Notes under the pieces: generated by a model
What the model was told of the DNA's origin: nothing
Seen by the model: the letters and a program-made list of their open reading frames with translations, nothing else
Database searches by the model: none
Part shown: in pieces, positions 3,911-35,276 of the stretch
How positions within the stretch are numbered: position 1 is the stretch's first letter
Layout: each line of letters opens with the position of its first letter
DNA from: Candidatus Methanoxibalbensis ujae
GTDB lineage: Archaea > Halobacteriota > Syntropharchaeia > Alkanophagales > Methanospirareceae
Length of the DNA: 64,000 bases
Assembly (NCBI GenBank): GCA_026134085.1
Contig: JAOQIN010000002.1
Location: forward strand, 73,390 to 137,389
Reading direction: 5' to 3'
Program-made: the position numbers and the translations under genes

Positions 3911-4008
3911 CCCCTCTCAATTCATTCCGCATATTTAAATCACAAGTTTTCTTCGCCAAGAAAGCCCCTCAGGGGATGAATTATACTCTGAACGGTATAA
4001 AGAAAAGA

Positions 4009-5030
4009 ATGATGGAAGCGGAGATAACAAAGACAGTCAAGTGTAAGCTCATGACAAAGCGAAAGCTTGAGCTACTTAAGAATACGACAACTTTCAACAC
4101 TACTTGAAGACTGGAGAGGATAGGGGAGTTTATTCTGCAACGAAACAGCAAGGGAAGCGAACATATCTGAAGATTGACCCCCGCAAGGAATATCCTCTCA
4201 AGGAAAGACCTGATGGATATCCGCAAAACCAATAACAAACTCGCCGGGTATCGGGCTCGCATTCCCATTTGTGGAGTCGGAGGTGGAGTTAAGGTTGCAC
4301 TTAAACATCAACCCTTCAGCTTCATGGGAGATTTGCTGTTCTAAGCTGATTGGAACGAGAGATGGCGAAATCCATCTTCATGTCGCAGTCAGGTCTTCAT
4401 GTCGTATCAGGTCTTCATGTCGTAGTCAAGAGCCGAAGAAGGAATACTCGTCCATCACAGCGATAGACGAAATGGGCAGGTGTGTCTGTGGCACCGCACC
4501 AGAGTTCTACGGCAAAAGGGTGAGCTTAAAAATATTTCTCAGGAGGAAGCTCGGAAGAGAGAAAAAGCTGAGAGCAATAAAAAAGATCGGGCATAATGAA
4601 GAATTGTCAATGATGAAACAAGATAGCGAAATAAATTGTTGAAGAAGCGGAGAAGCGCAATAATTGCATCGGTAACCTAAATAGTGTTAGAAACAATAAC
4701 AGTGGAAGAAAGGTGAACAATAAATCAATACAATGCCATTCCATAAATAATATCAAGTATAAAGAGAGTAATCATAGAGAAGTTCATACAACACATCAAG
4801 AATTGTGGCTACCATTAAGATGTGAACGGAGCCGAGAACAAATGAGCCATTGCTCATGGCAGGTGCTTTCGTTACCCCGCCAGAAGCGCAATGCACACCC
4901 CCCAAAATGCTTCCGGTGGAAGTCCTTTAGTCGGGGAGCCCGCCTCATGCGCGGCTGTATTATCCACAGCTCGGTTGAGTGCTGCACTGAGGTTGCGTAA
5001 AGAGCTGAAGCGATGCAGTGTGTCCATCCA
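4009..5030 (+). pseudogene. tnpB: decayed IS200/IS605-family tnpB (OrfB) transposase/RNA-guided nuclease gene
   Basis: Fragments lie in at least 4 frames: MEAEITKTVKCKL.., YSATKQQGKRTYLKIDPRKEYPL, AGYRARIPICGVGGGVKVALK, GEIHLHVAV, EKKLRAIKKIGHNE, VEEAEKRNN. Their order matches archaeal TnpB. No intact ORF longer than 123 aa, and no tnpA. Confidence 0.65.
4389..4424. repeat. perfect 18-nt x2 tandem duplication inside the tnpB remnant
   Basis: tcaggtcttcatgtcgta occurs twice, head to tail. Confidence 0.95.
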
Positions 5031-18037: not shown

Positions 18038-19183
18038 TCATATTCTCTTATCTTCATTCATCTGAACGACTTCCTCAACATCCATCACGCTGTTCAGCAT
18101 GTCCCTGAGCAGTTCGCTCTCAAAGTTCGCGTATGCCTTCTTGGATTTAGGGGATGCGATTGCGATTTTCCGCTCCTCAAGAGGAGGATATGCGTTTCTG
18201 AATACACTTTCAATTTCATTTACCCATGATGGCATTTCCTCAGCGATGAAGAGAGTAGGTTCGGGATATGTGTGCCATGTGTATGCGTCGTATCTTGACA
18301 ATCTGTCAGTGAGCACGATGACGATGACCTCCGACATCACGGAAAATGAAGTTGTGAGGAACATCATTGTATCATCCATTGAGAATCCGCTGAACTGACA
18401 GATGAACTCATCCAATGTCTTTGGGGTCACACCGAGTTTGACTGCGAGGCTTTCCACCATCATCTTCTTTGCATCTTCTTTTATCTCATCTGCAAATTCT
18501 GACAGCCTTTTCTCAAATGATGAGGCGAGATCACGCAGGTATTCCTCCCTGAAATCAACAAGCGCATCCCTGACACGCTTCTTCTCCTCTTCCTCATGTC
18601 TCAGCGAGAGGAACTCACGCTTCGCCTTCTTCATGTAGAAGCATATGCCCTCCCCTATCATCCTCTCCTCAATTGATTTGAACACATCGGGAGAGAACAT
18701 ATCCGAAATCTCGGTCTTCAGCATCTCATACTGAGTCATACCTGCATGTTCATAGGGCATTTTCAGCATAAGCTCAAGCATTTTGAGCGATGCAATGTCT
18801 TTTTTCGAGACGCATTCCTCAAAGAACGCTGAAAGCTGCTTTGGCGGGCTCACGAATTCGGATGCCACTTCCTCAAACGCATCTTCAAATCCTTCGGGAC
18901 ACAGAAACTCATCGTAGAATCCTCTCCAAAGAAGTCCTCTCTTCCTCAGCTCCTTCACGATGGCTCTGCATTCACTGTCTGCCGCTGATTCGTCGTTCAT
19001 GCGGCGAATTGCGTTGTAGTTTCTCGCGAGCGATTCTATGGTTGAGTAACCCTCAAGCATGTGAACGAGTGCGACAATTGTCCTCACGCGCTCATCATTG
19101 GCAGCCATTCGCGAGAGCATCTTCCTGTATTCAGCAGGGGTCATCATCACATCACCCCCCTGCATCTTCATCTTAGCGCACAT
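18038..19183 (-). CDS. hypothetical protein, translationally coupled to SepCysS
   Basis: 381-aa ORF with protein-like composition. ATG 19183 overlaps the pscS stop (19173-19175); alternative ATGs lie at 19171 and 19165. No family recognised. Confidence 0.65.
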   Translation of the reverse strand: MCAKMKMQGGDVMMTPAEYRKMLSRMAANDERVRTIVALVHMLEGYSTIESLARNYNAIRRMNDESAADSECRAIVKELRKRGLLWRGFYDEFLCPEGFEDAFEEVASEFVSPPKQLSAFFEECVSKKDIASLKMLELMLKMPYEHAGMTQYEMLKTEISDMFSPDVFKSIEERMIGEGICFYMKKAKREFLSLRHEEEEKKRVRDALVDFREEYLRDLASSFEKRLSEFADEIKEDAKKMMVESLAVKLGVTPKTLDEFICQFSGFSMDDTMMFLTTSFSVMSEVIVIVLTDRLSRYDAYTWHTYPEPTLFIAEEMPSWVNEIESVFRNAYPPLEERKIAIASPKSKKAYANFESELLRDMLNSVMDVEEVVQMNEDKRI

Positions 19184-20540
19184 TCAAATTATATTTTGAT
19201 GCTATTTCCTTGAATGCGTCTGCCGTGTATTTAATCTGATCCCATGAGAGCCCGTATGTGTTCAGTTTCCATACTTTCGTTGAGCCTGCAAATTCGCCTA
19301 CGATTCCACGGCGCTTGAGCTCATCGCTGAGGAAGTATCCGCGACGCTTGTGTGTTCTAGCTATGCGATCAAAACTGCCGCGTGTGTCAACCTTTGAGAG
19401 TGTGTGCTTGCGCGGAAGCTCGCTCACCACATCGCAACCTTCAATTCGCATGAATTCATCAATGAAGTAATTGCTCTTCCTCACCTCCTCATCCCAGCGC
19501 CTCACGCGCTCTTTCACATGGGGGAAAGATGCGATCATCGTAACGATAGTTGCTCCCATGAGTGTGCATCCCAGAAGCTCGGGCTCCTTTGCCGAAAACT
19601 TTCTGCCTGTCAGGTCTCCCTTTATCTCACTTCCTCTGAAGACGACCGGTGCCCATTCCTCTGTTGTTGCCAGGATGCCTGAGGGAGCAGCTGATGCCAT
19701 TCCCTTGTGTCCGCTCCCGACAACGAAATCGGCACATATTTCTTTTCCGTTCACAGGCAGCAGTCCCACAGAATACGCACCGTTGTATAGGAAGGGAATT
19801 CCATATTCCTTCGCCACTTTTCCGATGCCTCTGACATCGTGCTCATTTCCAAATGAATAGTCAAAATGCTCAATCATGATCAGCTTGGGCAGTTTTCCAT
19901 TTTCCTCACGCACCTCCTCTATCTTTGCTGCCACCGCATCCGCCGTCACAACATGATGCTCTCCTGAGGGGACTTCCTTCACAACGCCTCCCGCAACCTC
20001 AACCGCGAGAAACTCTGTGTAATGCGCGATGTCTGACACAAGAACAACATCACCCCGCTCTATGAGAGCTGAAGTGACGGCTTGAAAAGCCCTCCTCGCA
20101 CCTGGAAATACCCTCACATCGTCCATGCCGACGAAATCCGCAAGCTCTGCATGAAATTCTTCAATCGGCGGTCTCCTTATCCTCTCAAGCTTGAAAGGAG
20201 AAAGGCAGTAATCACATACAGAATATCCATCGCCATATGCTATAAGCGCCTTCCTCGCATCAACAGTCAGCCTTCCTCCGGGCTGTATCGGATTTATGTT
20301 TATAAATTCCTCCTCCCTCGTCCTCAACTCTATTTTGTCGGAGATGAACTTCAGTTGAACTCCTTTTCCTTCATTCAATTCATCAATAACTTGCTTCAAA
20401 CGCTCCAAATGCTCGTTGAACGCACGCTCCTGCTCCTCATTCAATCCAGTGGGCAGCGCATTCCTGAATATCTCACGCATTTCCTCAAGCACGAACATCG
20501 CTTCAAATATCTTGCGAACACGCACATCCCCCATAAGCAA
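19173..20540 (-). CDS. pscS: O-phospho-L-seryl-tRNA:Cys-tRNA synthase (SepCysS) with N-terminal helical extension
   Basis: NINPIQPGGRLT, GDGYSVCDYC, and SGHKGMASAAPSG (PLP lysine motif). About 80 extra N-terminal residues relative to short SepCysS forms. Confidence 0.85.
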   Translation of the reverse strand: MLMGDVRVRKIFEAMFVLEEMREIFRNALPTGLNEEQERAFNEHLERLKQVIDELNEGKGVQLKFISDKIELRTREEEFININPIQPGGRLTVDARKALIAYGDGYSVCDYCLSPFKLERIRRPPIEEFHAELADFVGMDDVRVFPGARRAFQAVTSALIERGDVVLVSDIAHYTEFLAVEVAGGVVKEVPSGEHHVVTADAVAAKIEEVREENGKLPKLIMIEHFDYSFGNEHDVRGIGKVAKEYGIPFLYNGAYSVGLLPVNGKEICADFVVGSGHKGMASAAPSGILATTEEWAPVVFRGSEIKGDLTGRKFSAKEPELLGCTLMGATIVTMIASFPHVKERVRRWDEEVRKSNYFIDEFMRIEGCDVVSELPRKHTLSKVDTRGSFDRIARTHKRRGYFLSDELKRRGIVGEFAGSTKVWKLNTYGLSWDQIKYTADAFKEIASKYNLNVR

Positions 20541-20556
20541 TTTCTTTCGTTTTCCC

Positions 20557-20570
20557 GTTTATAAAAAAAA
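20557..20570 (-). promoter_or_regulatory. TATA-box-like element upstream of pscS
   Basis: The minus strand reads ttttttttataaac about 20 nt upstream of ATG 20540. This would imply a leaderless or very short leader transcript. Confidence 0.3.
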
Positions 20571-20855
20571 CGCAAATAATGTTCTCTTCAACTTTGTGAG
20601 GGATACTTACCTTCAACCAATCGTATCTCTTTCTCCTGAATTCATACTATCTTCTGAATGCATTTGTTGTAACGTTCATGCCTGACTTAACAGCTTATTC
20701 CGGAAGCATGATTTCTTATCGTCCTCCTCTGCAAAGCCAGAGCAGGTATGTGCAGTCTTTGTATCAGAATTTAATATTGTATTCATCTTCCTTTTTTCCT
20801 TCTCATCAGGATTATCCGGATTTAAAGGAAATGTTCAGTCTCTCTTCTTCTCCTG

Positions 20856-20879
20856 TTACATCATTCATTACATCATTCA
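20856..20879. repeat. perfect 12-nt x2 tandem duplication
   Basis: ttacatcattca occurs twice. Confidence 0.95.
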
Positions 20880-21737
20880 TCTGTATGGAATCCATCACAG
20901 TTTCAGCATCAAAGTATTCCTGGCTCCGCTTATGGAAACATATCCATTGAGATCACTGGTCAGCTATTTTTTGGAACTTATCAACACCAACCGAGATAAC
21001 TTAAATCAATTTCTTTTCTCGTCTCATCAACATAATGCTTGGTTCTCATTTGTTCTTACGATCCCCGCAACAGCAGATACATGCATTTCCTTGATAGCAA
21101 TGATTAGTGCTTTATGTAAAGCCTGCTCCTTGACCATGGAACACAGTTTTCCATGTCCATCACACCTTATGGAATTTCTCCTCATAATAATTTTCCACCC
21201 CATTCATTGAGAGAGGAGATTACAAATGGAGCACAGAGGAGATTTCAGAAGGACCAGAAGGAGCACATCCAGAATCACCAGAAGAAGTGAAGTGGAGGCT
21301 CAAACTACAAGATTCCATCCAGAATATTTGCATAGCCCCATTCTTTGCTGCATATCTCAAATTCACAGAAGAGCACAAAATTTTTGTCAGGTTGATTGCT
21401 CCAGAAGACAATGAGAAGATTTTGCTTCTGGAATACAGGACGAGATTCCTCATACAAGAAGAAGTTGAAGAGGAAGCTTTCAGGAATTGGATTCAAGAGG
21501 TGCAGTGGTCTCACAATCACAACAGATTTGAATCAATACACCAACATCATAAGTGCAACAAAAGCAGTGAAGAAGAGATGGGACATTGTTTTAATTGAGG
21601 AGAGAGCTGGACAGATTCCACAGAATGGTTTAGCACCAGTGATGAGATTTCAGAGCAAGCAATGAATGAATACATGCGAGAGTGTCCATTTGATTTGATG
21701 TATGGGCATCCTCCAGATTCTCCTTTCTCTTTATTTT

Positions 21738-21800
21738 CTTTCTCTGAAATCCTGCTGAACAAATGAGAAACTCAAATCCACTTTCCAGTTTCTTAGGCAC
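21738..21800 (-). repeat. inverted partial copy of the fbp 3' end / fbp-dys intergenic junction
   Basis: The reverse complement reads gtgcctaagaaactggaaagtggatttgag|gtttctcatttgttcagcaggatttcagagaaag. It matches 29341-29370 (about 25/30) and 29464-29497 (33/34). Confidence 0.85.
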
Positions 21801-22469
21801 ATCTGGCATCAAAGGATGAGGTATTTGAGTATTTTGGAGTTTTCATTGGAAAAGGGACATGGAGCACCACACTATTTTGGACAATGTGTAAATATGGCAT
21901 AAGGATGATAAGAGAAGCACTTGACATTGCAAAATAATTCATGTGCGAAGGTATTTGAATACCAACATATTAAAATATGTGTTAGATTGTTCATGCATCA
22001 TTGTATTGGATTACAGGCTGTCATATGATTTCAATATCAAAGACTTTGCAGAAGGAGATAAAACAATAACAAAGACAAGAAAGACAATGAAGAGAAGAGG
22101 AGGAAAGGGGAATATGTTGCGACAGTTCCAACTGTTGTGAGAGAGCCATATCCGGAGATGACAGTCCAGATTCAATTGAGTTTGTATTACTGGAACCCTT
22201 GCATGCTTTAAGAAAACATACTCCTTTTGTATAGTGAGCAGCATTCAGGAAATTCAAATTTGAATTCCTTCTCATATGTATAGACTCGCCCTGCACATTC
22301 CAAGTCCTTGATGTACCATGGTGACCCAATTCCCAATGCCCCAATTCTCAATGCTATCTGAAATAGCTCTTCATCCCGCATGAAGAATATTAATTGAGGT
22401 TACCCAATGCTTAAGAGATCCGCAAATAAAAAAAAATAAAAAGAGGCATTGGCGAGGGAGGTGAGATAT

Positions 22470-22814
22470 ATGAGAATAGATGAATACAATTTCGGAAGGA
22501 TTGTTGTTGATGGAAAGGAATACACAGAGGACTTGATCATATTAACGGACAAAATAAAGGCAAACTGGTGGAGAAAAGAGGGCCATCTGCTGCTCAAAGA
22601 GGATATTGAGGATGTTATTGAGGAGGAGAAGCCAGAAATACTGATTGTAGGCACTGGTAAATACGGATACATGAAAATCGCTGATGAAACGCGTGAATAC
22701 GCAGCTGAGAAAGGCGTTGAAATAATCGCAGAGAGGACAGATGAGGCCTGCAGAATTTTCAACGAGCTCTCCGGTATGAAAAGAGTTGTCGCAGCACTGC
22801 ACTTGACATGCTGA
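22470..22814 (+). CDS. Mth938-like domain protein (DUF498)
   Basis: MRIDEYNFGRIVVDGKEY .. ILIVGTG .. C-terminal AALHLTC, colinear with the Mth938/AAMDC fold family as I recall it. Confidence 0.75.
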   Translation: MRIDEYNFGRIVVDGKEYTEDLIILTDKIKANWWRKEGHLLLKEDIEDVIEEEKPEILIVGTGKYGYMKIADETREYAAEKGVEIIAERTDEACRIFNELSGMKRVVAALHLTC

Positions 22815-22852
22815 TACCTGCTGATAAATCAAATCAAGCATGGACGCAGCGC

Positions 22853-23131
22853 CTATTTATATATTATCCTGAAGCCCTTTTCTCCTCTGTATTCCTCCCA
22901 GTGAACATCAACATGCGATACCTTTGCCGCTGGCGGTCCGCGACGGCAGAACGCTATCATCTCCTCCACCGCACTCCTCTCCCCCTCAAACACAGCTTCA
23001 ACTCTCCCATCCGGAAGATTTCTCACCCACCCGCGCACGCCTCTTGCAACAGCCTCTTCCCGTGTTGCATATCTGAAAAACACGCCTTGCACTTTTCCGC
23101 TTATGAAGACATGCGCCCTGACTGTCTCCAT
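22853..23131 (-). CDS. acyP: acylphosphatase
   Basis: 92 aa with [20 protein letters not shown] and [12 protein letters not shown]. Confidence 0.9.
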
Positions 23132-23291
23132 ATCTTTTTTTCTTTTCTTCTTTTTTTATTTCTTTATATTATAACCATTATAACAGAAAATGATGTCTGG
23201 CCATAAGGCGTCATGGGCTGTATGACCCTGCCCATAAAGCTGACCGAATCCCAACCACCTCTTCTCTTTTTCGAAGGAGGGAGAAGGTCAC

Positions 23292-23906
23292 ATGATCGCG
23301 ATAATGAATTACGGCATGGGAAATCTCTTCAGCATATATAACAGCATGAAAAAGGTGAATGGAGAGCCTGAGCTTGTTTCAGTAGGTGAAATCAATATGC
23401 TCAGGCAGGCTGACGGCATAATTATTCCGGGCGTCGGCGCTTATGATGACGGAATGAGAAGATTGAAGCCCATCGCAGACGAGCTGCGTGAGATATTGTC
23501 AGGAGGCGTTCCACTTCTCGGCATATGCATAGGGATGCAGCTGCTTTTTGAGGAAAGCGAAGAGGGCAATGAGCGCGGATTGAGCTTGATCCCTGGCAGA
23601 GTCGTCAGACTGCCGGAGACTGTCAGAGTCCCTCACATGGGCTGGAACAACTTGCATTTCTCATATTCGGAGATACTTTCAGAGATACTTGAAGGAATCT
23701 CAGAGCATGACTACTTCTATTTCGTGCATTCTTATTACTGTGCACCTCGTGATGAGCGTCATATCGTCGCATTCTCTGAATACGGCGTAAGATTCGCCGC
23801 AGTCGTGAACATTGATAACATTTACGGTGTGCAGTTTCATCCTGAAAAATCCTCAAAAAAGGGACTTCACATACTCAAAAATTTCGTGCATATATGCAAG
23901 CGCTGA
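23292..23906 (+). CDS. hisH: imidazole glycerol phosphate synthase, glutamine amidotransferase subunit
   Basis: GVGAYD, LGICIGMQLL (catalytic Cys), VPHMGWN, FVHSYY, GVQFHPEKS. Confidence 0.92.
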   Translation: MIAIMNYGMGNLFSIYNSMKKVNGEPELVSVGEINMLRQADGIIIPGVGAYDDGMRRLKPIADELREILSGGVPLLGICIGMQLLFEESEEGNERGLSLIPGRVVRLPETVRVPHMGWNNLHFSYSEILSEILEGISEHDYFYFVHSYYCAPRDERHIVAFSEYGVRFAAVVNIDNIYGVQFHPEKSSKKGLHILKNFVHICKR

Positions 23907-24236
23907 CTTCTCCGCTGGTATTTTGTTGCCGCTTCTGACACTTCAGGGCGTTATCTGTTGAGTGTTGTTTTGTTTCTCATGGCCTCTCCTCCAACCCGGC
24001 ACTTTTCTCACCTCATCATTTACGCCCTCTCATTCACTTGACTCCCGGCATCCCGGCTTTCGCTTATTAAGACTCTCCATCCTCTCTCAACATGCAGACC
24101 CAAATCTGAGCAAAGCAGAAGTCTATGTTGGATGCTTGAGGACTCACGGGAGACCTGAGCGGCTCAGGAAGCAGCTGTCTAGTTGCCTGTGGCATCTGCA
24201 GGTTTTAACAACATAAAATAAAAATAATGATGCAAT

Positions 24237-24806
24237 ATGGCTGGAATAAATCTGAACAAGAAGGGTATAAGAGTGCTGGGAATTGCGGAGAGCTTTGTGA
24301 GAGAGAATCCGAAATCCATTCTTGCAGGCATTGTGATGCGTTCTGATATGATTATTGACGGCTTCGCTCTCACAAGAATAAGTGTGGGAGGTATGGATGC
24401 CACGGAAGGAGTCATAAGGATTTTTAATTCACTTGATCGTTCAGATATAAATGTGATAATGCTCAATGGCTGCGTGATAAGCTGGTTCAATATAATTGAT
24501 CTGAGCAGGGTATATGAGGATTTGGGTGTGCCTCTGGTGTGTGTGACATACGAAAGCTCAGGAGGGCTTGAGGAGCATATCTCACGGCATTTCAGCGGAT
24601 ATGACCGTGATGTGCGCCTGGATGCATACAGAAGGCTCGGAGAGAGAGTTCCTGTTCGCGTGTCGCGTCATGAGGTGCTTATACGATTTCTCGGCATGGA
24701 AAAAAGCGAGGCAGCCCGCCTTCTCCGCAAATTCACAATTCATGGTAAAACGCCAGAACCACTCAGGGTTGCAAGGCTCGTGGCAAGAGCTGTTCTCAGG
24801 AACTAA
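24237..24806 (+). CDS. DUF99/UPF0215 family protein (endonuclease V-like fold)
   Basis: IRVLGIAESF .. GIVMR .. DGFALTRISVGGMDAT .. the pattern typical of archaeal UPF0215 proteins. Confidence 0.7.
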   Translation: MAGINLNKKGIRVLGIAESFVRENPKSILAGIVMRSDMIIDGFALTRISVGGMDATEGVIRIFNSLDRSDINVIMLNGCVISWFNIIDLSRVYEDLGVPLVCVTYESSGGLEEHISRHFSGYDRDVRLDAYRRLGERVPVRVSRHEVLIRFLGMEKSEAARLLRKFTIHGKTPEPLRVARLVARAVLRN

Positions 24807-24827
24807 ACATAGGTGCAGTTCACTTGA

Positions 24828-25946
24828 TCACAGCAGTATCTGTATATCAAGCTTTTCAGAAAGTTCGCGGTAACGGTTTCTTATTGTGACCTCCGTCACA
24901 CCTGTTGCCTCTGATATTTCCTTCTGTGTGCGGTGCTTTCCGCTGAGTATCGCTGCAATATATATTGCGGCGGCTGCAACGCCTATGGGACCACGACCGT
25001 TCGTCAACTCCTTCTCCTGCGCCTTCTTTATGATTTCAATGGCCTTCGCACGGACATCTCCACCCAATCCCAATCTCGAGCAGAAACGAGGGACGAACTC
25101 AATAGGAGATGCAGGCGGAAGTTTTATGTCAAGCTCCCTCAAAATAAAGCGATACGCACGACTTATTTCTCTCTGAGAAACTCTTGAAACGGATTTTATT
25201 TCCTCAAGTGTGCGTGGAATGCCATACTGACGGCATGTTATATACAGAATGGCAGATGTTATACCCTCTATGCTCCGTCCTCTTATCAGATTCTTCTCCA
25301 TCACTTCTCTGTAAAGCTTTGCAGCAGCCTCTCTTATGTTCACCGGCAGCTTCAGCGCGGATGCCATACGATCAATCTCAGACAGCGCATATATGAAGCT
25401 GCGCTCCGTGGTGTTTGTGATGTGTGCGATGTGCCATCTTCCGAGCGGTTCCAGGCCCTTTGATGTGACGAGCGTGCTCAGACCCTTATCATGAATCCTA
25501 TATGTCATCGGCGCACCCACTCTCTCACGCTGAGATGCCTGCTCAAAATCAAAAGCACGCCACTCAGGTCCGAGATCAACAAGATTTTCCGCTATTACAA
25601 GACCACAATCCCCGCAGAACATCTCCGCCCTTTCATAATCCCACACGAGATTGCGTGAATGACACTCTGGACATTCTTTCACACGCTCCACTCCTCTCTC
25701 CTCTTCCCTCACAACATTCTCAGCTGCACGCCGATCTCTCTGCTCTTGCTGCTCTCTCTTTTCGTGCTTCTCAATCTTCTCAATGCTCATATTGTTCTCA
25801 TACTCCTTATCTCTCTCAATATCCCCCTCTTTCTCCCGCTTTATTTCTCCGCTCGCCTCCCTGTCATCTCTCCTATCATTATACACCAGCTGCTTATCCG
25901 CGTCTTCCGCTTCTTCATCCATAATATAATTTATAGATTTTTTCAA
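24828..25946 (-). CDS. tfb: transcription initiation factor TFB with roughly 90-aa charged N-terminal extension
   Basis: Zn ribbon [24 protein letters not shown], then GPEWRAF, two cyclin-fold repeats, and a C-terminal HTH ([19 protein letters not shown]). The Zn ribbon starts only around residue 92. Confidence 0.9.
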
Positions 25947-26046
25947 ATATTTAACTTTCTGTTTTTTTTCTGTTGCTGATGATTCTCACCGGCGGGATAC
26001 GGCACGGGATATGGAGGAGGTTGTTCATATGGTTTCAGATGGCGGA

Positions 26047-26229
26047 ATGAGAATTGAAGAATACTGGCTTGTGCCCGAATGACGCAGGAATGTATGGAGC
26101 AATGGAAGTAGGAAACTTGTGAGTGTATCTGCTCAAAATGCGTTGAAGTGATTGTTGAGCGGACAGGGAAGGCCTGCGAGATTTTCAACAGGACCTCAAG
26201 CGGTCGCAGCTCTGCACTTGACATGCTGA
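26047..26229 (+). pseudogene. decayed, internally deleted paralog of the Mth938-like gene
   Basis: It starts atgagaattgaagaatac (MRIEEY, compare MRIDEY at 22470) and has an early stop. The 3' part gttgaagtgattgttgagcggacaggg..attttcaac..gtcgcagctctgcacttgacatgctga parallels 22725-22814. Confidence 0.75.
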
Positions 26230-26343
26230 TGCAGTTCGTTGAGCGAAATTTATGTGAGATATTTTCAATTGAAATTATGGAAGAGGAAAAGGAGAAAGGG
26301 AGAGAGGAGGAAAAAGTGCCAGAGGGATTTCTAGCTAGAGGCG

Positions 26344-26643
26344 GTGAACAAGTTTTACGATGCCTATGATTTCATATTCAAGCGTTTTGACGAGATATAC
26401 ATGGATTACCTGCGTGGAGAAGATGTCAGAAAGCAATTAAGGAATTTTGAAAAGACAGCAGGAATCATATTTCTCCTGATCAGCGATCTCTTTTCAAGAG
26501 AGGAGAAAGTCAAGAAGTGGCTTGCTAAGGAGCATGTTGAGGAGGAGAAAATCCAAAAAATTATGGAATTTAAGAGGCGTTATTCAGGTTTAGAAGATGA
26601 AATAATAGCTTTCACATGGGAATCACTCGGATATTTCCATTAG
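26344..26643 (+). CDS. small helical protein (paralog of 9663..10001), first gene of the orphan operon
   Basis: GTG start with an upstream in-frame stop at 26332. The gap-free alignment to the 112-aa protein gives about 38 percent identity by hand count. Confidence 0.7.
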   Translation: MNKFYDAYDFIFKRFDEIYMDYLRGEDVRKQLRNFEKTAGIIFLLISDLFSREEKVKKWLAKEHVEEEKIQKIMEFKRRYSGLEDEIIAFTWESLGYFH

Positions 26644-26664
26644 ACGGATGTTTCAACAAGATAT

Positions 26665-26952
26665 ATGTTTGATATTAAGTATAAATTTCCTGTTATTGAA
26701 TTGCATCTTTTCTCTGGTTCAAGAGAAATATTACATTTGAGAGATCCAGTAACATCAGTATATCATCTGGCAAGAACGATTCAGGAAGAGGTAAAGAGAT
26801 GTCTCGGAGGAGTGAAAGGTTATGATATTGATCCGGATGAAATTAAGCATATAGAGGATGTTATGAGAGGAATAGAGTTGGATTTGGGGGAAATAAGAGA
26901 AATAATAGAAGAGATAAAGGGGAGGGAGGAGGAAGGGAGGAGAGTAAGATGA
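26665..26952 (+). CDS. hypothetical protein (orphan operon gene 2)
   Basis: 95-aa ORF starting 21 nt after gene 1. Its stop overlaps the gene 3 start (ATGA). No family recognised. Confidence 0.5.
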   Translation: MFDIKYKFPVIELHLFSGSREILHLRDPVTSVYHLARTIQEEVKRCLGGVKGYDIDPDEIKHIEDVMRGIELDLGEIREIIEEIKGREEEGRRVR

Positions 26953-27542
26953 GAGGAACGAGCGAGGCCTTTCCAGAAAGTTACAAGGAATGGATGAGAG
27001 AAGAAAAAGGGAGAGTAAAGGAGCCTTTCCCTGGAATTTTTAGAGAGAGGAAAAAAGATTTGGACATGCTCTCTAGGTATGTTTGGAAGGTCTATAGAGG
27101 AAGTTACTTGGAAGTAGGGAAAGAGGAGATGGAGTATTTGACAAGAACGCCACCAAGACCGACATCCATCTACAAAACTACTTTTGAACTGCGCCATCTT
27201 ATGAGGAAATTGGGAGAAGAATATACAGAGGAAACAGGCATTAGTGAGGAGAGAGCTTTTGAAGAACTGCGCAATCTTATGAGGAAATTGGAGAGGGGAG
27301 AAGTTTTAAATGCTGATGAAGTGGCGAGTTTGATGCGTATAGAGGAATTTGCCCGCAGCGAAGGGAGGGAAGAACTGCTGCGTGAGGTTGAAAGGGCATT
27401 CACAAAGCTTGGAGAATTAACAAAGAACCTTGCAGGGGAGCCTGAAAAGATGGAATTGAAGAGAGGGGAGATCAAGGAAATAGATGAAAACACACTTATT
27501 AGGCGAAGAAAGGATGGGAAGTCGGAACTTATACTTCTTTAA
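26949..27542 (+). CDS. hypothetical protein (orphan operon gene 3) with internal 28-nt direct repeat
   Basis: 197-aa ORF. gaactgcgc(c/a)atcttatgaggaaattgg occurs at 27186-27213 and at 27264-27291 (ELRHLMRKLG / ELRNLMRKLE). Confidence 0.6.
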   Translation: MRGTSEAFPESYKEWMREEKGRVKEPFPGIFRERKKDLDMLSRYVWKVYRGSYLEVGKEEMEYLTRTPPRPTSIYKTTFELRHLMRKLGEEYTEETGISEERAFEELRNLMRKLERGEVLNADEVASLMRIEEFARSEGREELLREVERAFTKLGELTKNLAGEPEKMELKRGEIKEIDENTLIRRRKDGKSELILL

Positions 27543-27547
27543 AGAAA

Positions 27548-27838
27548 ATGGTGGAAGAAATAGGCAAAGAATTAGGCAAAGAACTGGCAGGAGAAATAAT
27601 AAGGGGGGTAAGTGAAAGGAAAGAAGAAGATTTCTTCAAGGAATGCGATACTTGGTGGAAGGAACGAGGTATATTTAGACCTAAAATACTCTTTGTGCAT
27701 AAGTATGCCGATTATATAGATATATGGGAAGCGGAATGGGGTAGAAGTGTGAATATCAGGTATATTAAGAGAATACCTTTGGGAACGAATATTTTTCCGA
27801 CAAGCAATAATTTACACCGCTCAATGTCCGGGATGTGA
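27548..27838 (+). CDS. hypothetical protein (orphan operon gene 4)
   Basis: 96-aa ORF starting 5 nt after gene 3. Trp/Tyr-rich core (CDTWWKERGIF..YIDIWEAEWGRS). Confidence 0.5.
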   Translation: MVEEIGKELGKELAGEIIRGVSERKEEDFFKECDTWWKERGIFRPKILFVHKYADYIDIWEAEWGRSVNIRYIKRIPLGTNIFPTSNNLHRSMSGM

Positions 27839-28088
27839 TCGGAGAGACAAAGTGGTTCGCATTAGTGCAAGCTGAAGTTTAGCCGCACTCTAAGGAGCAT
27901 AACGGATTGGGAATTGGGAACTTCTGCGGGATTCTGAGTGCTTTGCATCCGAGAATCTGAATCACAGAATAAGAAGGGAAAGAGCTATTGAGGAAGCGGA
28001 AGGGTTCTGTGGAGAGATGGATTAATAAGCTTTACAGGAAACCTGTCTCCTGCACCTCTGCTCTCCCAGAGTAAGAGCTGGCAGGCGT

Positions 28089-28122
28089 GATGTCTGTGTG
28101 CCGGATGTCTGTGTGCCGGATG
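28089..28122. repeat. perfect 15-nt x2 (+4 nt) tandem duplication upstream of fbp
   Basis: gatgtctgtgtgccg occurs twice, followed by gatg. Confidence 0.95.
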
Positions 28123-28233
28123 ATCCGACCGCCCGTGGGAGGGATGTGGGGCCTGTCCAGCTTTGAATCCTTCCGTCCGTGAGGGAGATCTACTTTTTCA
28201 CTCATCTCAACATTCTTTTTCACCCATCTCAAC

Positions 28234-28241
28234 CTTTATAC
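28234..28241 (+). promoter_or_regulatory. TATA-box-like element upstream of fbp
   Basis: ctttatac lies about 26-33 nt upstream of ATG 28267. It is preceded by a duplicated cac(t/c)catctcaac motif. Confidence 0.35.
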
Positions 28242-28266
28242 AGTTGAAAAAAAATGGAAATCAGAA

Positions 28267-29382
28267 ATGGAGAAGATAACTGTCAGCCTGATAAAGGCGG
28301 ATGTTGGCGGATTTCCCGGGCATTCAACTGTGCGTGAGGAGCTGATGGAGATATCGGAGAAGCGGTTGAAGGCTGCGAAAGATGAGGGGCTGCTTGTTGA
28401 TTATTGCGTGATGAACGCAGGTGATGACCTGCAGCTGCTTATGTCGCATCGGAAAGGCGTGAACTCGGAGGAGATACACAGGCTCGCATGGGAGACATTT
28501 GAGGAGGCAACGAGGAAAGCAAAGGAGTTAAAGCTGCATGGCGCCGGTCAGGACCTCCTGAAAGAGGCTTTCAGCGGTAACATTCGTGGAATGGGTCCCG
28601 GCATCGCTGAGATTGAATTCACCGAGCGCGGCTCCGAGCCCATTATCGCCTTCATGATGGACAAAACAGAGCCGGGTGCGTTCAATCTTCCCATATTCAG
28701 GATGTTCGCAGATCCCTTCAACACAGCAGGGCTCGTCATAGACCCGACTATGCATAGCGGATTCAGATTTGAGATATGGGACATAAAGGAGCATCGCAGA
28801 ATATTCATGAACTCACCTGAGGAGATGTATGACATCCTCGCACTCGTAGGTGCGAAGAGCAGGTATGTGATAAAGCGCGTTTATCCGAAGGAAGGTGGTC
28901 CTCTTCCGCCAGATGAGCCTGTTGCCGTGATAAGCACGGAGAAATTATCGTTCATCGCAGGCAGATACATCGGTAAGGACGACCCTGTTGCGCTTGTGAG
29001 GGCACAATCAGGACTGCCAGCACTCGGCGAGGTTCTTGAGCCGTTTTCCCGCCCTTTCCTAGTGAGCGGCTGGATGAGAGGCTCGCATAACGGACCGATA
29101 ATGCCCGTGCCATTCCAGTATTCAAAGTGCACTCGTTTCGACGGACCTCCGAGAGTGCTCGCAGCTGGATTCCAGATGAGCAATGGAAGACTCGTTGGAC
29201 CCGCAGACCTCTTTGATGATGTCGCATTTGATGAGGCTCGCAGAATCGCAAATGAAATCGCAAACTACATGCGTGAGCACGGTCCTTTCGAGCCGCATCG
29301 CCTGCCTCTTGAGGAAATGGAATACACAACATTGCCTGATGTGCTTAAGAAACTGGAAAGCAGGTTTGAAAGCGTTGAATGA
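28267..29382 (+). CDS. fbp: fructose-1,6-bisphosphate aldolase/phosphatase (class V FBPase)
   Basis: MEKITVSLIKADVGGFPGHS .. MSHRKG .. GNIRGMGPG .. GWMRGSHNGPIMPV. Length is about 370 aa. Confidence 0.95.
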   Translation: MEKITVSLIKADVGGFPGHSTVREELMEISEKRLKAAKDEGLLVDYCVMNAGDDLQLLMSHRKGVNSEEIHRLAWETFEEATRKAKELKLHGAGQDLLKEAFSGNIRGMGPGIAEIEFTERGSEPIIAFMMDKTEPGAFNLPIFRMFADPFNTAGLVIDPTMHSGFRFEIWDIKEHRRIFMNSPEEMYDILALVGAKSRYVIKRVYPKEGGPLPPDEPVAVISTEKLSFIAGRYIGKDDPVALVRAQSGLPALGEVLEPFSRPFLVSGWMRGSHNGPIMPVPFQYSKCTRFDGPPRVLAAGFQMSNGRLVGPADLFDDVAFDEARRIANEIANYMREHGPFEPHRLPLEEMEYTTLPDVLKKLESRFESVE

Positions 29383-29497
29383 ACTCTTTTTTTTGTTTAT
29401 TTTTTATTTTTATTTTTTATTTTTTATTTTTTTATTTTACTTTTTAAGCATACGAAAGGACAGGTTTCTCATCTGTTCAGCAGGATTTCAGAGAAAG
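29341..29497 (+). repeat. parent copy of the inverted repeat (fbp 3' end plus intergenic motif)
   Basis: 29341-29370 and 29464-29497 match the reverse complement of 21738-21800. Here the two blocks are separated by about 93 nt (the end of fbp plus a T-rich tract) that is absent from the 21.7-kb copy. Confidence 0.85.
29386..29455 (+). terminator. long T-rich tract with tttttat-type periodicity downstream of fbp
   Basis: ttttttttgtttattttttatttttattttttattttttatttttttattttacttttt immediately follows the fbp stop. Oligo-T is the archaeal terminator signal. Confidence 0.5.
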
Positions 29498-29514
29498 AGG
29501 AGAAGGAGGAGAAA

Positions 29515-29586
29515 GAAAATAAAGAGAACAGGGAGAATAAAGAGAACAAAGAGAATAAGGAGAACAAAGAGAACAGAGAGGGGAAA
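29515..29586. repeat. purine-rich 18-nt tandem repeat (3-4 imperfect units) just upstream of dys
   Basis: gaaaataaagagaacagg / gagaataaagagaacaaa / gagaataaggagaacaaa / gagaacagagaggggaaa. Confidence 0.8.
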
Positions 29587-29593
29587 GAGAGAG

Positions 29594-30520
29594 ATGAGAA
29601 AAAGCCAGGTGCATGGCATTCAAGTGAAATGTGGGATGAGTGTTGATGATCTCGTGAAAGGCATGGGGGCATGTGCATTCGGTGCTCGTCGTATTGCCGA
29701 ATCAGTTGACATATATGAGGAGATGATACTTGAAAATGCGAGGATATTTCTCGGAGTAGCCGGTGCTCTCGTCCCCGCTGGAATGCGACCTGTCATTGCT
29801 GAAATGCTCAGGCTTCATTTTGCGGATGTCCTCGTGACGACGGGTGCAAACATAGTTCATGACATCATAGAAGCGCTTGGCGAGCATCATTATGTGCAGA
29901 TGCAGCACAGAGACGACGCATATCTGCGGAAAATGGGGACAAGCAGAATATATGATGTTGTTGTGAGCGATAAGGCATTTGAAAAGCTTGAGGAATTCAT
30001 GCATAACACATTCAGATCTCTCAAATCTGAAAAATACAGCATACGCGAGCTGTTATGGGAGATGGGAAGAAGAATAAATGATGAACATTCAATACTTCAT
30101 GTGGCATATGAAAATAAGATTCCTGTATTCTGTCCTTCTCTCGCTGATTCGATGATAGGGTTGCATGCCTTCATCTTCAAGCAGATTTCGCAGCTGAATG
30201 TTGATGCATTTGACGACATGCGAGATATAAACGAGATTTTCTGCAGTTCAGAGCGAGTGGGAGCTGTCATACTCGGCGGAGGCGTTCCTAAGAACTTCAT
30301 CCTTCAGACAGCACTCGTAGCTCCGAGAGGAGGTTTTGACTATGCGATCCAGATAACCACGAGAACGCCTGAGGACGGAAGTCTGAGTGGAGCAACGCTT
30401 GAAGAAGCGGTTTCATGGGGAAAACTGCGTGAGAATGCAAAATTCGTCACTGTGTATTGTGATGCGACAATAGCACTTCCAATAATCATCGCAGCACTAA
30501 GAGAGCGCCTGAGGCGTTAG
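29594..30520 (+). CDS. dys: deoxyhypusine synthase
   Basis: Starts MRKSQVHGIQV. Contains the GALVPAGMR, TTGANIVHD and ILGGGVPKNF patterns. About 308 aa. The upstream part of the track ORF (29183-29593) is rejected. Confidence 0.88.
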   Translation: MRKSQVHGIQVKCGMSVDDLVKGMGACAFGARRIAESVDIYEEMILENARIFLGVAGALVPAGMRPVIAEMLRLHFADVLVTTGANIVHDIIEALGEHHYVQMQHRDDAYLRKMGTSRIYDVVVSDKAFEKLEEFMHNTFRSLKSEKYSIRELLWEMGRRINDEHSILHVAYENKIPVFCPSLADSMIGLHAFIFKQISQLNVDAFDDMRDINEIFCSSERVGAVILGGGVPKNFILQTALVAPRGGFDYAIQITTRTPEDGSLSGATLEEAVSWGKLRENAKFVTVYCDATIALPIIIAALRERLRR

Positions 30521-35176: not shown

Positions 35177-35276
35177 CGCCGAGGAAGGGATTTGAACCCT
35201 TGCGCCCCTCACGGGACACAGGCTATCTGTGGCGCACACTCCAGGCCTGCGCCTTAGTCCACTCGGCCACCTCGGC
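35177..35276 (-). tRNA. tRNA-Ser (anticodon GGA) with 14-nt intron at the canonical 37/38 position
   Basis: The reverse complement folds by hand as follows. Acceptor GCCGAGG/CCTCGGC; D arm GCC-AGTGGACTAA-GGC; anticodon stem CAGGC/GCCTG enclosing CTGGAG + TGTGCGCCACAGAT + A. Long variable arm GTCCC-GTGA-GGGGC; T arm AAGGG-TTCAAAT-CCCTT; discriminator G; no encoded CCA. Confidence 0.85.

Follow-up and report, generated by a model that had tools for sequence, protein, structure and literature searches.

A 64,000-nt stretch of Candidatus Methanoxibalbensis ujae DNA (contig JAOQIN010000002.1, positions 73,390 to 137,389; here called the window) contains the junction between the genes fbp and dys twice: once in full, and once as a short, inverted and incomplete copy 7.7 kb away. 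The initial annotation of the locus took this pair as a before-and-after view of the growth of a T-rich tract and a purine-rich array, with deletion from the copy as the alternative, and as a potential substrate for inversion of the DNA in between. The locus raises the question of how the copy arose, which of the two versions represents the older state, and whether the pair has any function. Comparison with around 35 contigs of the same or sister strains, gathered through exact-protein look-ups and one metagenome DNA-pattern scan, suggests that the copy is probably the fossil of one old templated ('copy-paste') insertion, made in inverted orientation into a mobile-element-like gene and since decayed.

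An inverted copy of the fbp-dys junction

The source segment, designated x, spans about 205 nt (29333-29538, + strand). It comprises the 3′ end of fbp with its stop codon (29333-29382), a T tract (29387-29446; period 7/13/20 by Tandem Repeats Finder, TRF), an 18-nt conserved core, AAGCATACGAAAGGACAG (29446-29463), the 34-nt motif m (29464-29497), and a first purine block, a (29498-29538), which holds the first purine units and ends in GGAGAAT. The eroded inverted copy, x′, occupies 21718-21808 on the − strand and consists of an fbp-tail part, f′ (21772-21808), the motif m′ (21738-21771), and a purine remnant, a′ (21718-21737).

The reverse complement of 21718-21808 matches the fbp-dys junction in two blocks, both returned by the repeat finder in inverted orientation. 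Block I1 (21718-21771 against 29464-29517) covers 54 nt without gaps at 83% identity; block I2 (21772-21808 against 29333-29369) covers 37 nt at 86%, or 32/37. The fbp match had been recognised initially, albeit placed at 29341-29370 with about 25/30 identities, and these coordinates are superseded by those of I2. A further block, I8 (21725-21744 against 29509-29528; 20 nt, 100%), becomes visible when an internal deletion is permitted, and x′ and x share 86-97% identity per block. Motif m, GTTTCTCATCTGTTCAGCAGGATTTCAGAGAAAG, is found at only two sites in the window, 29464-29497 (+) and 21738-21771 (−), the latter with a single mismatch, which bears out the 33/34 match first reported. The two blocks gave E = 6e-11 and 5e-7 with blastn, and none of 100 shuffled sequences contained any motif match. 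Outside x′, blastn detected no DNA homology of the 21.7-kb region to fbp or dys, and the longest exact identity between the two arms in the window is at most 25 nt. The same arrangement is seen again at 98.7-100% identity in independent assemblies (L096, L097, L098, L088 and L113), and it is therefore not an assembly artefact. The inverted copy is real and beyond chance.

As the initial annotation had also noted, the two blocks are adjacent in the 21.7-kb copy and separated in the fbp-dys spacer. The separating 94 nt (29370-29463, +) begin with the final 13 nt of fbp, stop codon included, and continue through the T tract to the core; they are kept in x, and in full-length versions of x′ elsewhere, but deleted from x′ in the window. 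The purine array is likewise real, being detected by TRF at 29494-29580 with periods of 9/18/27. What remains of this 9/18-nt purine-rich array beyond x (29539-29593, +) is non-coding leader and lies outside the duplicated segment.

Polarity of the deletion

The copy x′ is present with identical junctions on both sides in 12 contigs, namely the window and 11 others from Joint Genome Institute, ENA and NCBI assemblies. On the left, CCTTTGAT is followed in all 12 by GCCAGAT, and on the right GGAGAAT is followed by CTGGAGGATG; identical junctions in 12 contigs point to a single event. Eight independent contigs (L094, L095 and L115-L120) hold a full-length x′, in which the fbp tail continues to the TAA stop codon and is followed by a T-rich spacer of 42-59 nt including the core, and then by m and a. 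A single deletion of the 94-nt class, with the same end-points, is shared by the window, L091, L093 and L096; L096 and the window have a further 2-nt loss in common, and an additional stretch of about 20 nt is missing from the purine block only in the window.

Since full-length copies with the T tract exist and the deletion end-points are shared, the deleted form nests within the full-length form. This nesting indicates that the T tract was copied along with the rest and disappeared from x′ through a later deletion, so that the window does not preserve a "before" state. The proposed view of T-tract growth thus fails, whereas the alternative offered with it, deletion from the copy, is upheld. 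As for the remaining purine units, x′ terminates within the array (at GGAGAAT) and hence carries no information on their growth.

The host gene of the copy

The copy lies in the 1.9 kb between a SepCysS-like gene (PF05889/PF00266 by Pfam; 19173-20540, −) and DUF498, where the window has no long open reading frame (ORF). A composite protein of about 410 aa aligns by tblastn to 21144-22196 (+) over three frames with several stops, and x′ sits between …FDLMYGHPPDS and RYLSILEFSL…GHGAPH of this alignment. The region, termed element E, is accordingly a multiply frameshifted pseudogene of a protein with rolling-circle Rep-like motifs. Homologous DNA is found in contigs L081 (3760-4559) and L114 (68-799); that of L081 has an intact 172-aa ORF and no x′. 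Database homologues of this ORF form two classes. Proteins P0135, P0139 and P0144 read through the site (…CPFDL(K/R)YG.PPE.KELKYL…GHGAPHLHILL…RRYLNT.IVKYVLKYVKK…), whereas P0136 and P0138 are ended by x′, terminating in the reverse-complemented purine block as …PPDSPCSFCFLSPLSLKSC and a stop.

The host gene is likely a decayed mobile-element Rep. The Pfam family REP_ORF2-G2P (PF23343) matches P0144, P0139 and the composite with 20.6-21.1 bits (E ~4e-4), below its gathering threshold of 27.8 bits, and motif-like strings recognised by eye follow in the right order: GLT(L/I)TTD, GAPHLHILL and RRYLNT.IVKYVLKYVKK. No support for a Rep came from NCBIfam, from a PDB profile search (CFTR noise only) or from a viral-contig scan, and the libraries searched contain no annotation for the ~410-aa family. 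An AlphaFold2 model of the protein was of low confidence (predicted local distance difference test score 62.9), and Foldseek found no match to this low-confidence model at E<1. The gene diverges fast, being 81-88% identical between strains with flanks that are 95-97% identical. The most intact element copy, in L114, is followed by a small helix-turn-helix gene and a small membrane protein. An ISL3-type transposase, which had been guessed for this gap from an ORF at 22208-22381 (−), has no Pfam support and was rejected.

The element appears to be multi-copy, with at least two copies in one metagenome-assembled genome (MAG), GCA_053938205.1. In contig L115 of this MAG, copy E1 carries full-length x′ beside SepCysS and is followed by YcaO and DNA ligase, an arrangement seen independently in L116 and L117. 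In contig L081 of the same MAG, copy E2 lacks x′ and stands beside DUF498-acyP-hisH-Endo_dU-tfb-orphans-fbp-x-dys.

A separate observation concerns the left side of the element. A stretch of about 60 nt (window 4005-4068, reverse complement) recurs directly left of the Rep-like element in L081 (3039-3087) and L117 (111-175), in the orientation opposite to that of the 4.0-kb copy in the window; it may mark the edge of an element, or it may belong to the end of a small paralogous gene.

A probable templated inverted insertion

Empty-site alleles are available as DNA (L081 and L114) and as the three read-through proteins, which cross the insertion point uninterrupted. Because these alleles are contiguous, contiguity would be the ancestral state, and x′ would have been inserted into a gene that has since become a pseudogene. 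With the target taken from the empty-site alleles, …CCAGAATC joined to AAAGGA… became …CCAGATTC, x′ and ATCAAAGGA…. Between 1 and 4 nt at the junctions may be microhomology, 3 nt (TTC/ATC) are duplicated, and terminal repeats are absent. The source x is intact beside dys, and the fbp ORF is complete. Short microhomology, a 3-nt duplication and the lack of terminal repeats would together be the trace left by a templated insertion or a template switch and would not fit transposition.

On the explanation favoured here, about 205 nt—the fbp tail, the fbp terminator, the dys promoter and the start of the dys leader—would have been copied in inverted orientation, leaving the source intact, and inserted into the ORF of element copy E1 beside SepCysS. 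The insert would then have been inherited vertically, decaying as non-functional DNA. A 94-nt deletion in one sub-lineage would have removed the end of the fbp coding sequence with its stop codon, together with T tract and core. A 2-nt loss common to L096 and the window would have followed, and the purine block of the window would have been shortened by a further 20 nt or so. The element of the window and L096 would be a hybrid of an x′-bearing left part and an E2-like right part, and recombination between two element copies would have placed x′ at 7.7 kb from x, inverted. The molecular mechanism was presumably a template switch or synthesis-dependent end joining, and x′ itself presumably has no function.

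Templated insertions and template-switch mutations have been attributed to synthesis-dependent microhomology-mediated end joining and to microhomology-mediated break-induced replication or fork stalling and template switching (PMC11724301, PMC7954356, PMC2943611). The present case resembles them in being an inverted copy from the same genome with an intact source, an apparent 1-4 nt of microhomology, no transposon ends and an empty site. Published examples come from yeast, flies and primates, mostly with inserts of 5-50 nt copied from nearby, whereas x′ measured about 205 nt, belongs to an uncultured archaeon and has its mechanism read from the footprint only. The locus would thus add one more case to a known class of event, the insertion of a templated, inverted copy, which survives here as a relic eroding inside a dead mobile-element gene. 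It is a clean natural case from an uncultured archaeon, since public assemblies preserve the donor segment, the unoccupied site, the complete insert and three successive stages of its erosion. It also acts as a corrective, in that a striking inverted repeat turns out to be a datable relic rather than a snapshot of repeat growth or a switch.

Four points weigh against this explanation. The junction between a and the sequence that follows x′ in the element, designated Y, is also the junction of an fbp-x-Y arrangement in contig L084, and the fbp-Y junction may conceivably have come first. MAGs can mix strains, so that two copies in one genome are not proven. The template may have been far from its target at the time of insertion, which is less usual for replication-based template switching. 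Lastly, the 34 nt of m carry no substitutions in the x′ copies, where about 5.3 would be expected, while the 77 flanking nt have undergone at least 12 events (Poisson P = 0.005, Fisher P = 0.009); a neutral relic does not predict an invariant m, and this conservation counts against a purely neutral reading.

Gene order and a rearrangement hotspot

Identity between the element of the window and that of L081 is 78-81% up to about position 21980 and 95.8% from 21987 onwards. The jump at about 21985 suggests a hybrid, in which an E1-type left part with x′ is joined to an E2-type right part, although the MAG that supplies both types may mix strains. The 7.7-kb bracket is probably secondary and due to recombination between element copies. 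It was initially described as enclosing Mth938-like, acyP, hisH, DUF99, tfb, an orphan operon and fbp. This holds for the window, where Pfam recognises DUF498, acylphosphatase, GATase, Endo_dU, TFIIB and FBPase between the copies (the orphan ORFs have no match), but it does not hold in general, since full-length x′ in L115 and L117 is followed by YcaO and DNA ligase. Across the contigs compared, the bracket thus appears specific to the arrangement of the window and L096.

A second duplicated stub, d (26085-26230, +), lies within the bracket and is a direct partial copy of the 3′ end of DUF498, identified by the repeat finder (D3, D12) and in strain contigs. It pairs with 22680-22815, the last 28 nt at 96% identity. 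Its identity to the Methanospirare-type DUF498 (79%) exceeds that of the full DUF498 gene of the window to the same type (74%). In compact strains such as L108, the Methanospirare-type DUF498 is intact and followed directly by the orphan genes, fbp and dys. The stub d is apparently what is left of a second DUF498, of the Methanospirare type, which in compact strains stands at the head of the orphan-fbp-dys block, and the block 20540-26085 looks like an insertion into that DUF498 arrangement. Depending on the strain, DUF498 is followed by frhB, by orphan genes and then frhB, or by orphan genes and then fbp-dys.

The so-called orphan operon is itself a variable cassette (window 26148-27838; L081 8740-9446; L084 720-1486). 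Around 1 kb of the window version (26278-27275) is absent from L081, and the shared part is limited to the C-terminal domain of a 197-aa protein (…LERGEVLNADEVASL…) and the next small protein. A 28-nt direct repeat lies within it (27186-27213 and 27264-27291). The FBPase protein is 100% identical across the window, L081-L090 and L108, its DNA differing by about 4-5%, which implies strong purifying selection on the protein. The genes next to this identical FBPase are 74-78% identical or different genes altogether, and the orphan-fbp block was probably exchanged between lineages.

A comparison of ANME-1 (anaerobic methanotrophic archaea, group 1) strains reports 7119 structural variants, 376 of them inversions with a median of 21.7 kb; the variants are concentrated in hotspots and affect frhB among other genes (Zhou et al. 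2026, PMC13385816). With thousands of such variants on record there, relics of the present kind are to be expected. The SepCysS-DUF498-fbp-dys neighbourhood behaves like a hotspot of rearrangement between strains, with a multi-copy Rep-like element as its seed. It resembles the hotspots of that study in belonging to the same clade, in its clustered strain-level insertions, deletions, inversions and duplications, and in the involvement of frhB, and it fits the hotspot-driven diversification of ANME-1 recently reported there; the section consulted describes neither this locus, nor this inverted micro-duplication, nor the Rep-like element (PMC13385816).

Inversion and breakpoint explanations

The initial annotation had regarded the two copies as a potential substrate for inversion, and x and x′ might indeed recombine homologously, so that both orientations of the segment occur in the population. 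The evidence for this comes mainly from contig L084, with the order SepCysS-DUF498(Methanospirare type)-orphans-fbp-T tract-core-m-a, followed by Y. As far as the T tract, L084 shares 95.7% identity with L108, a contig of the compact type (SepCysS-DUF498-orphans-fbp-x-dys); beyond it, L084 is 90.7% identical to the x′-Y sequence of L094, and its Y allele is 93% identical to the class of L094 and L095 with full-length x′. This fbp-x-Y junction is the one expected from a crossover between x and x′, for which a full-length x′ supplies about 205 nt at around 90% identity, and inversions are common among ANME-1 strains (PMC13385816). The junction is found, however, on a single 4-kb contig, and its switch point falls inside a low-complexity T tract of 85-110 nt, where assembly chimeras are likely. 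The background of L084 also differs from the window arrangement, SepCysS being directly beside the Methanospirare-type DUF498; no reciprocal Gc′-x-dys junction was present among the contigs recovered, Pfam found no recombinase in or beside the segment, and the arms in the window share at most 25 nt of exact identity. An invertible segment is, on this balance, an unlikely account of the pair. What stands of the initial proposal is a plausible substrate with one junction of the expected kind: ongoing or programmed inversion is unlikely, and occasional homologous exchange is possible, especially in strains with the full-length copy. L084 itself was rejected as a simple inversion of the 7.7 kb of the window, its left side having the compact SepCysS-DUF498(Z)-orphan arrangement.

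Invertons and shufflons share with this locus a gene-containing segment bracketed by inverted repeats. Unlike those systems, the segment has no recombinase, its repeats are decaying and unequal, it contains housekeeping genes in mixed orientations, and of the two recombinant junctions only fbp-x-Y was recovered.

The L084 junction can also be read as older than x′. Here the fbp-x-Y arrangement would once have been native, and x′ would be what a later rearrangement left after removing most of fbp; equivalently, x would have been duplicated at the ends of an inversion by staggered breaks. The staggered-break model, known from Drosophila inversions, accounts for inverted duplications at inversion breakpoints, and the pair x/x′ is like such duplications in that short inverted duplicates of unique sequence flank a segment. 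The identity of the a-Y junction in L084 and in all x′ copies favours such a breakpoint relic, and the DUF498 stub d marks another boundary at which local rearrangement has left a duplicated stub. Under that model, however, the flanked segment should be inverted with respect to the ancestral state, and an empty-site allele with unchanged gene order should not exist, whereas L081, with no x′ in its element, agrees with the window in gene order and orientation from one site to the other. At least three independent sequences are empty-site alleles whose frame is uninterrupted, the Y allele of L084 nests inside the x′-bearing allele class and not outside it, and a breakpoint relic requires two illegitimate joins where the insertion needs one event. 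Such an origin is consequently very improbable, more so than an invertible segment.

Motif conservation and possible function

The invariance of m also bears on function. Recent gene conversion is not its cause, because x has CATCTG and x′ has CATTTG within the same genome or MAG in three cases. The native motif has a potential partner: its first 10 nt, TTTCTCATCT (29465-29474, +), are the perfect complement of AGATGAGAAA (29592-29601), which spans the ATG of dys. None of 5000 shuffles equalled this length of complementarity. A purine-rich linker of variable length separates the two, and either allele of the C/T polymorphism in m would still pair with the dys start region, as G-C or as G-U. 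This complementarity suggests an "anti-start" pairing in the leader, a possible translational clamp on dys. The pairing belongs to the native site, however, and does not account for conservation in a dead copy.

The motif might accordingly be a cis element of dys, such as a leader or operator, whose duplicate has been kept by selection—for instance as a promoter or leader, upstream or antisense, that is directed across the element to SepCysS, or else as a decoy site. The missing substitutions, the differences between x and x′ within genomes, the 10-nt pairing and the orientation of x′ towards SepCysS are all in keeping with such a role. Against it, both T tract and core, where the TATA region is likely to lie, are gone from the sub-lineage of the window, and erosion of its purine block has continued; x′ is enclosed in a pseudogene at a distance of 1.2 kb from SepCysS, and SepCysS itself appears to have an AT-rich box upstream; no fold of m is significant (z ~−1); and the numbers are small, being drawn from 34 nt. 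Selection on the copy is thus hardly probable. The same slight credence is given to the fullest version of the idea, in which m is a dys-leader cis element acting as a 10-nt anti-start clamp over a purine linker, and x′ is kept as a second regulator or RNA site, or as the arm of a recombination switch that re-wires the DNA downstream of fbp. The favoured explanation of x′ remains the decaying templated insertion.

Two other identities considered for the motif were rejected. A scan of 241 million metagenome records returned five contigs with the motif, every one from these two loci, and with two loci only and no array it is not a repeat of the clustered regularly interspaced (CRISPR) type, a fragment of a miniature inverted-repeat transposable element or insertion sequence, or a dispersed motif. 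Nor is it taken for a structured RNA, as Rfam returned no family and folds of m, alone or with flanks, gave z between about −1 and +0.5.

The native fbp-dys spacer and a nearby tRNA

At the native site, fbp (FBP aldolase/phosphatase; FBPase_3, PF01950; 28267-29382, +) precedes dys (deoxyhypusine synthase, PF01916; 29594-30520, +), both identified by Pfam. Both the T tract and the purine array between them are hypervariable. Across L081-L086, L108 and L113, the distance from the fbp tail to the motif is 63-94 nt, and 110 nt in L084, and even a contig with 99.7% identity to the window has a different T tract. An ORF at 29183-30520 runs without interruption from within fbp to dys, taking in T tract, motif and purine array on the way, and the gene call in L083 joins the array to dys in a protein of 345 aa. 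A coding N-terminal extension of dys was nevertheless rejected. The distance from motif to ATG is 96, 93, 86 or 72 nt depending on the strain, with differences that are not multiples of three, so that strain indels break the frame; the upstream start codon for such a fusion is found in some strains only, and the ORF is open by accident.

The suggestion that related genomes would settle the order of events could be followed only in part. The FBPase protein assigns the window to ANME-1 (Methanophagales) but has just 82% identity to its best match among species-representative genomes, and among 80 species-level relatives dys lies within 10 kb of fbp in just one case, most have only a short oligo-T after fbp, and none has a match to m. 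With relatives lacking the junction, the long T tract or the motif, these features are lineage-specific; and as the neighbours of fbp differ in the 80 loci, the spacer was polarised from the strain-level contigs instead, which point to deletion.

Elsewhere in the window, Rfam recognises a 100-nt tRNA at 35177-35276 (−) with 49.5 bits. ARAGORN missed this gene, which is probably an intron-containing archaeal tRNA.

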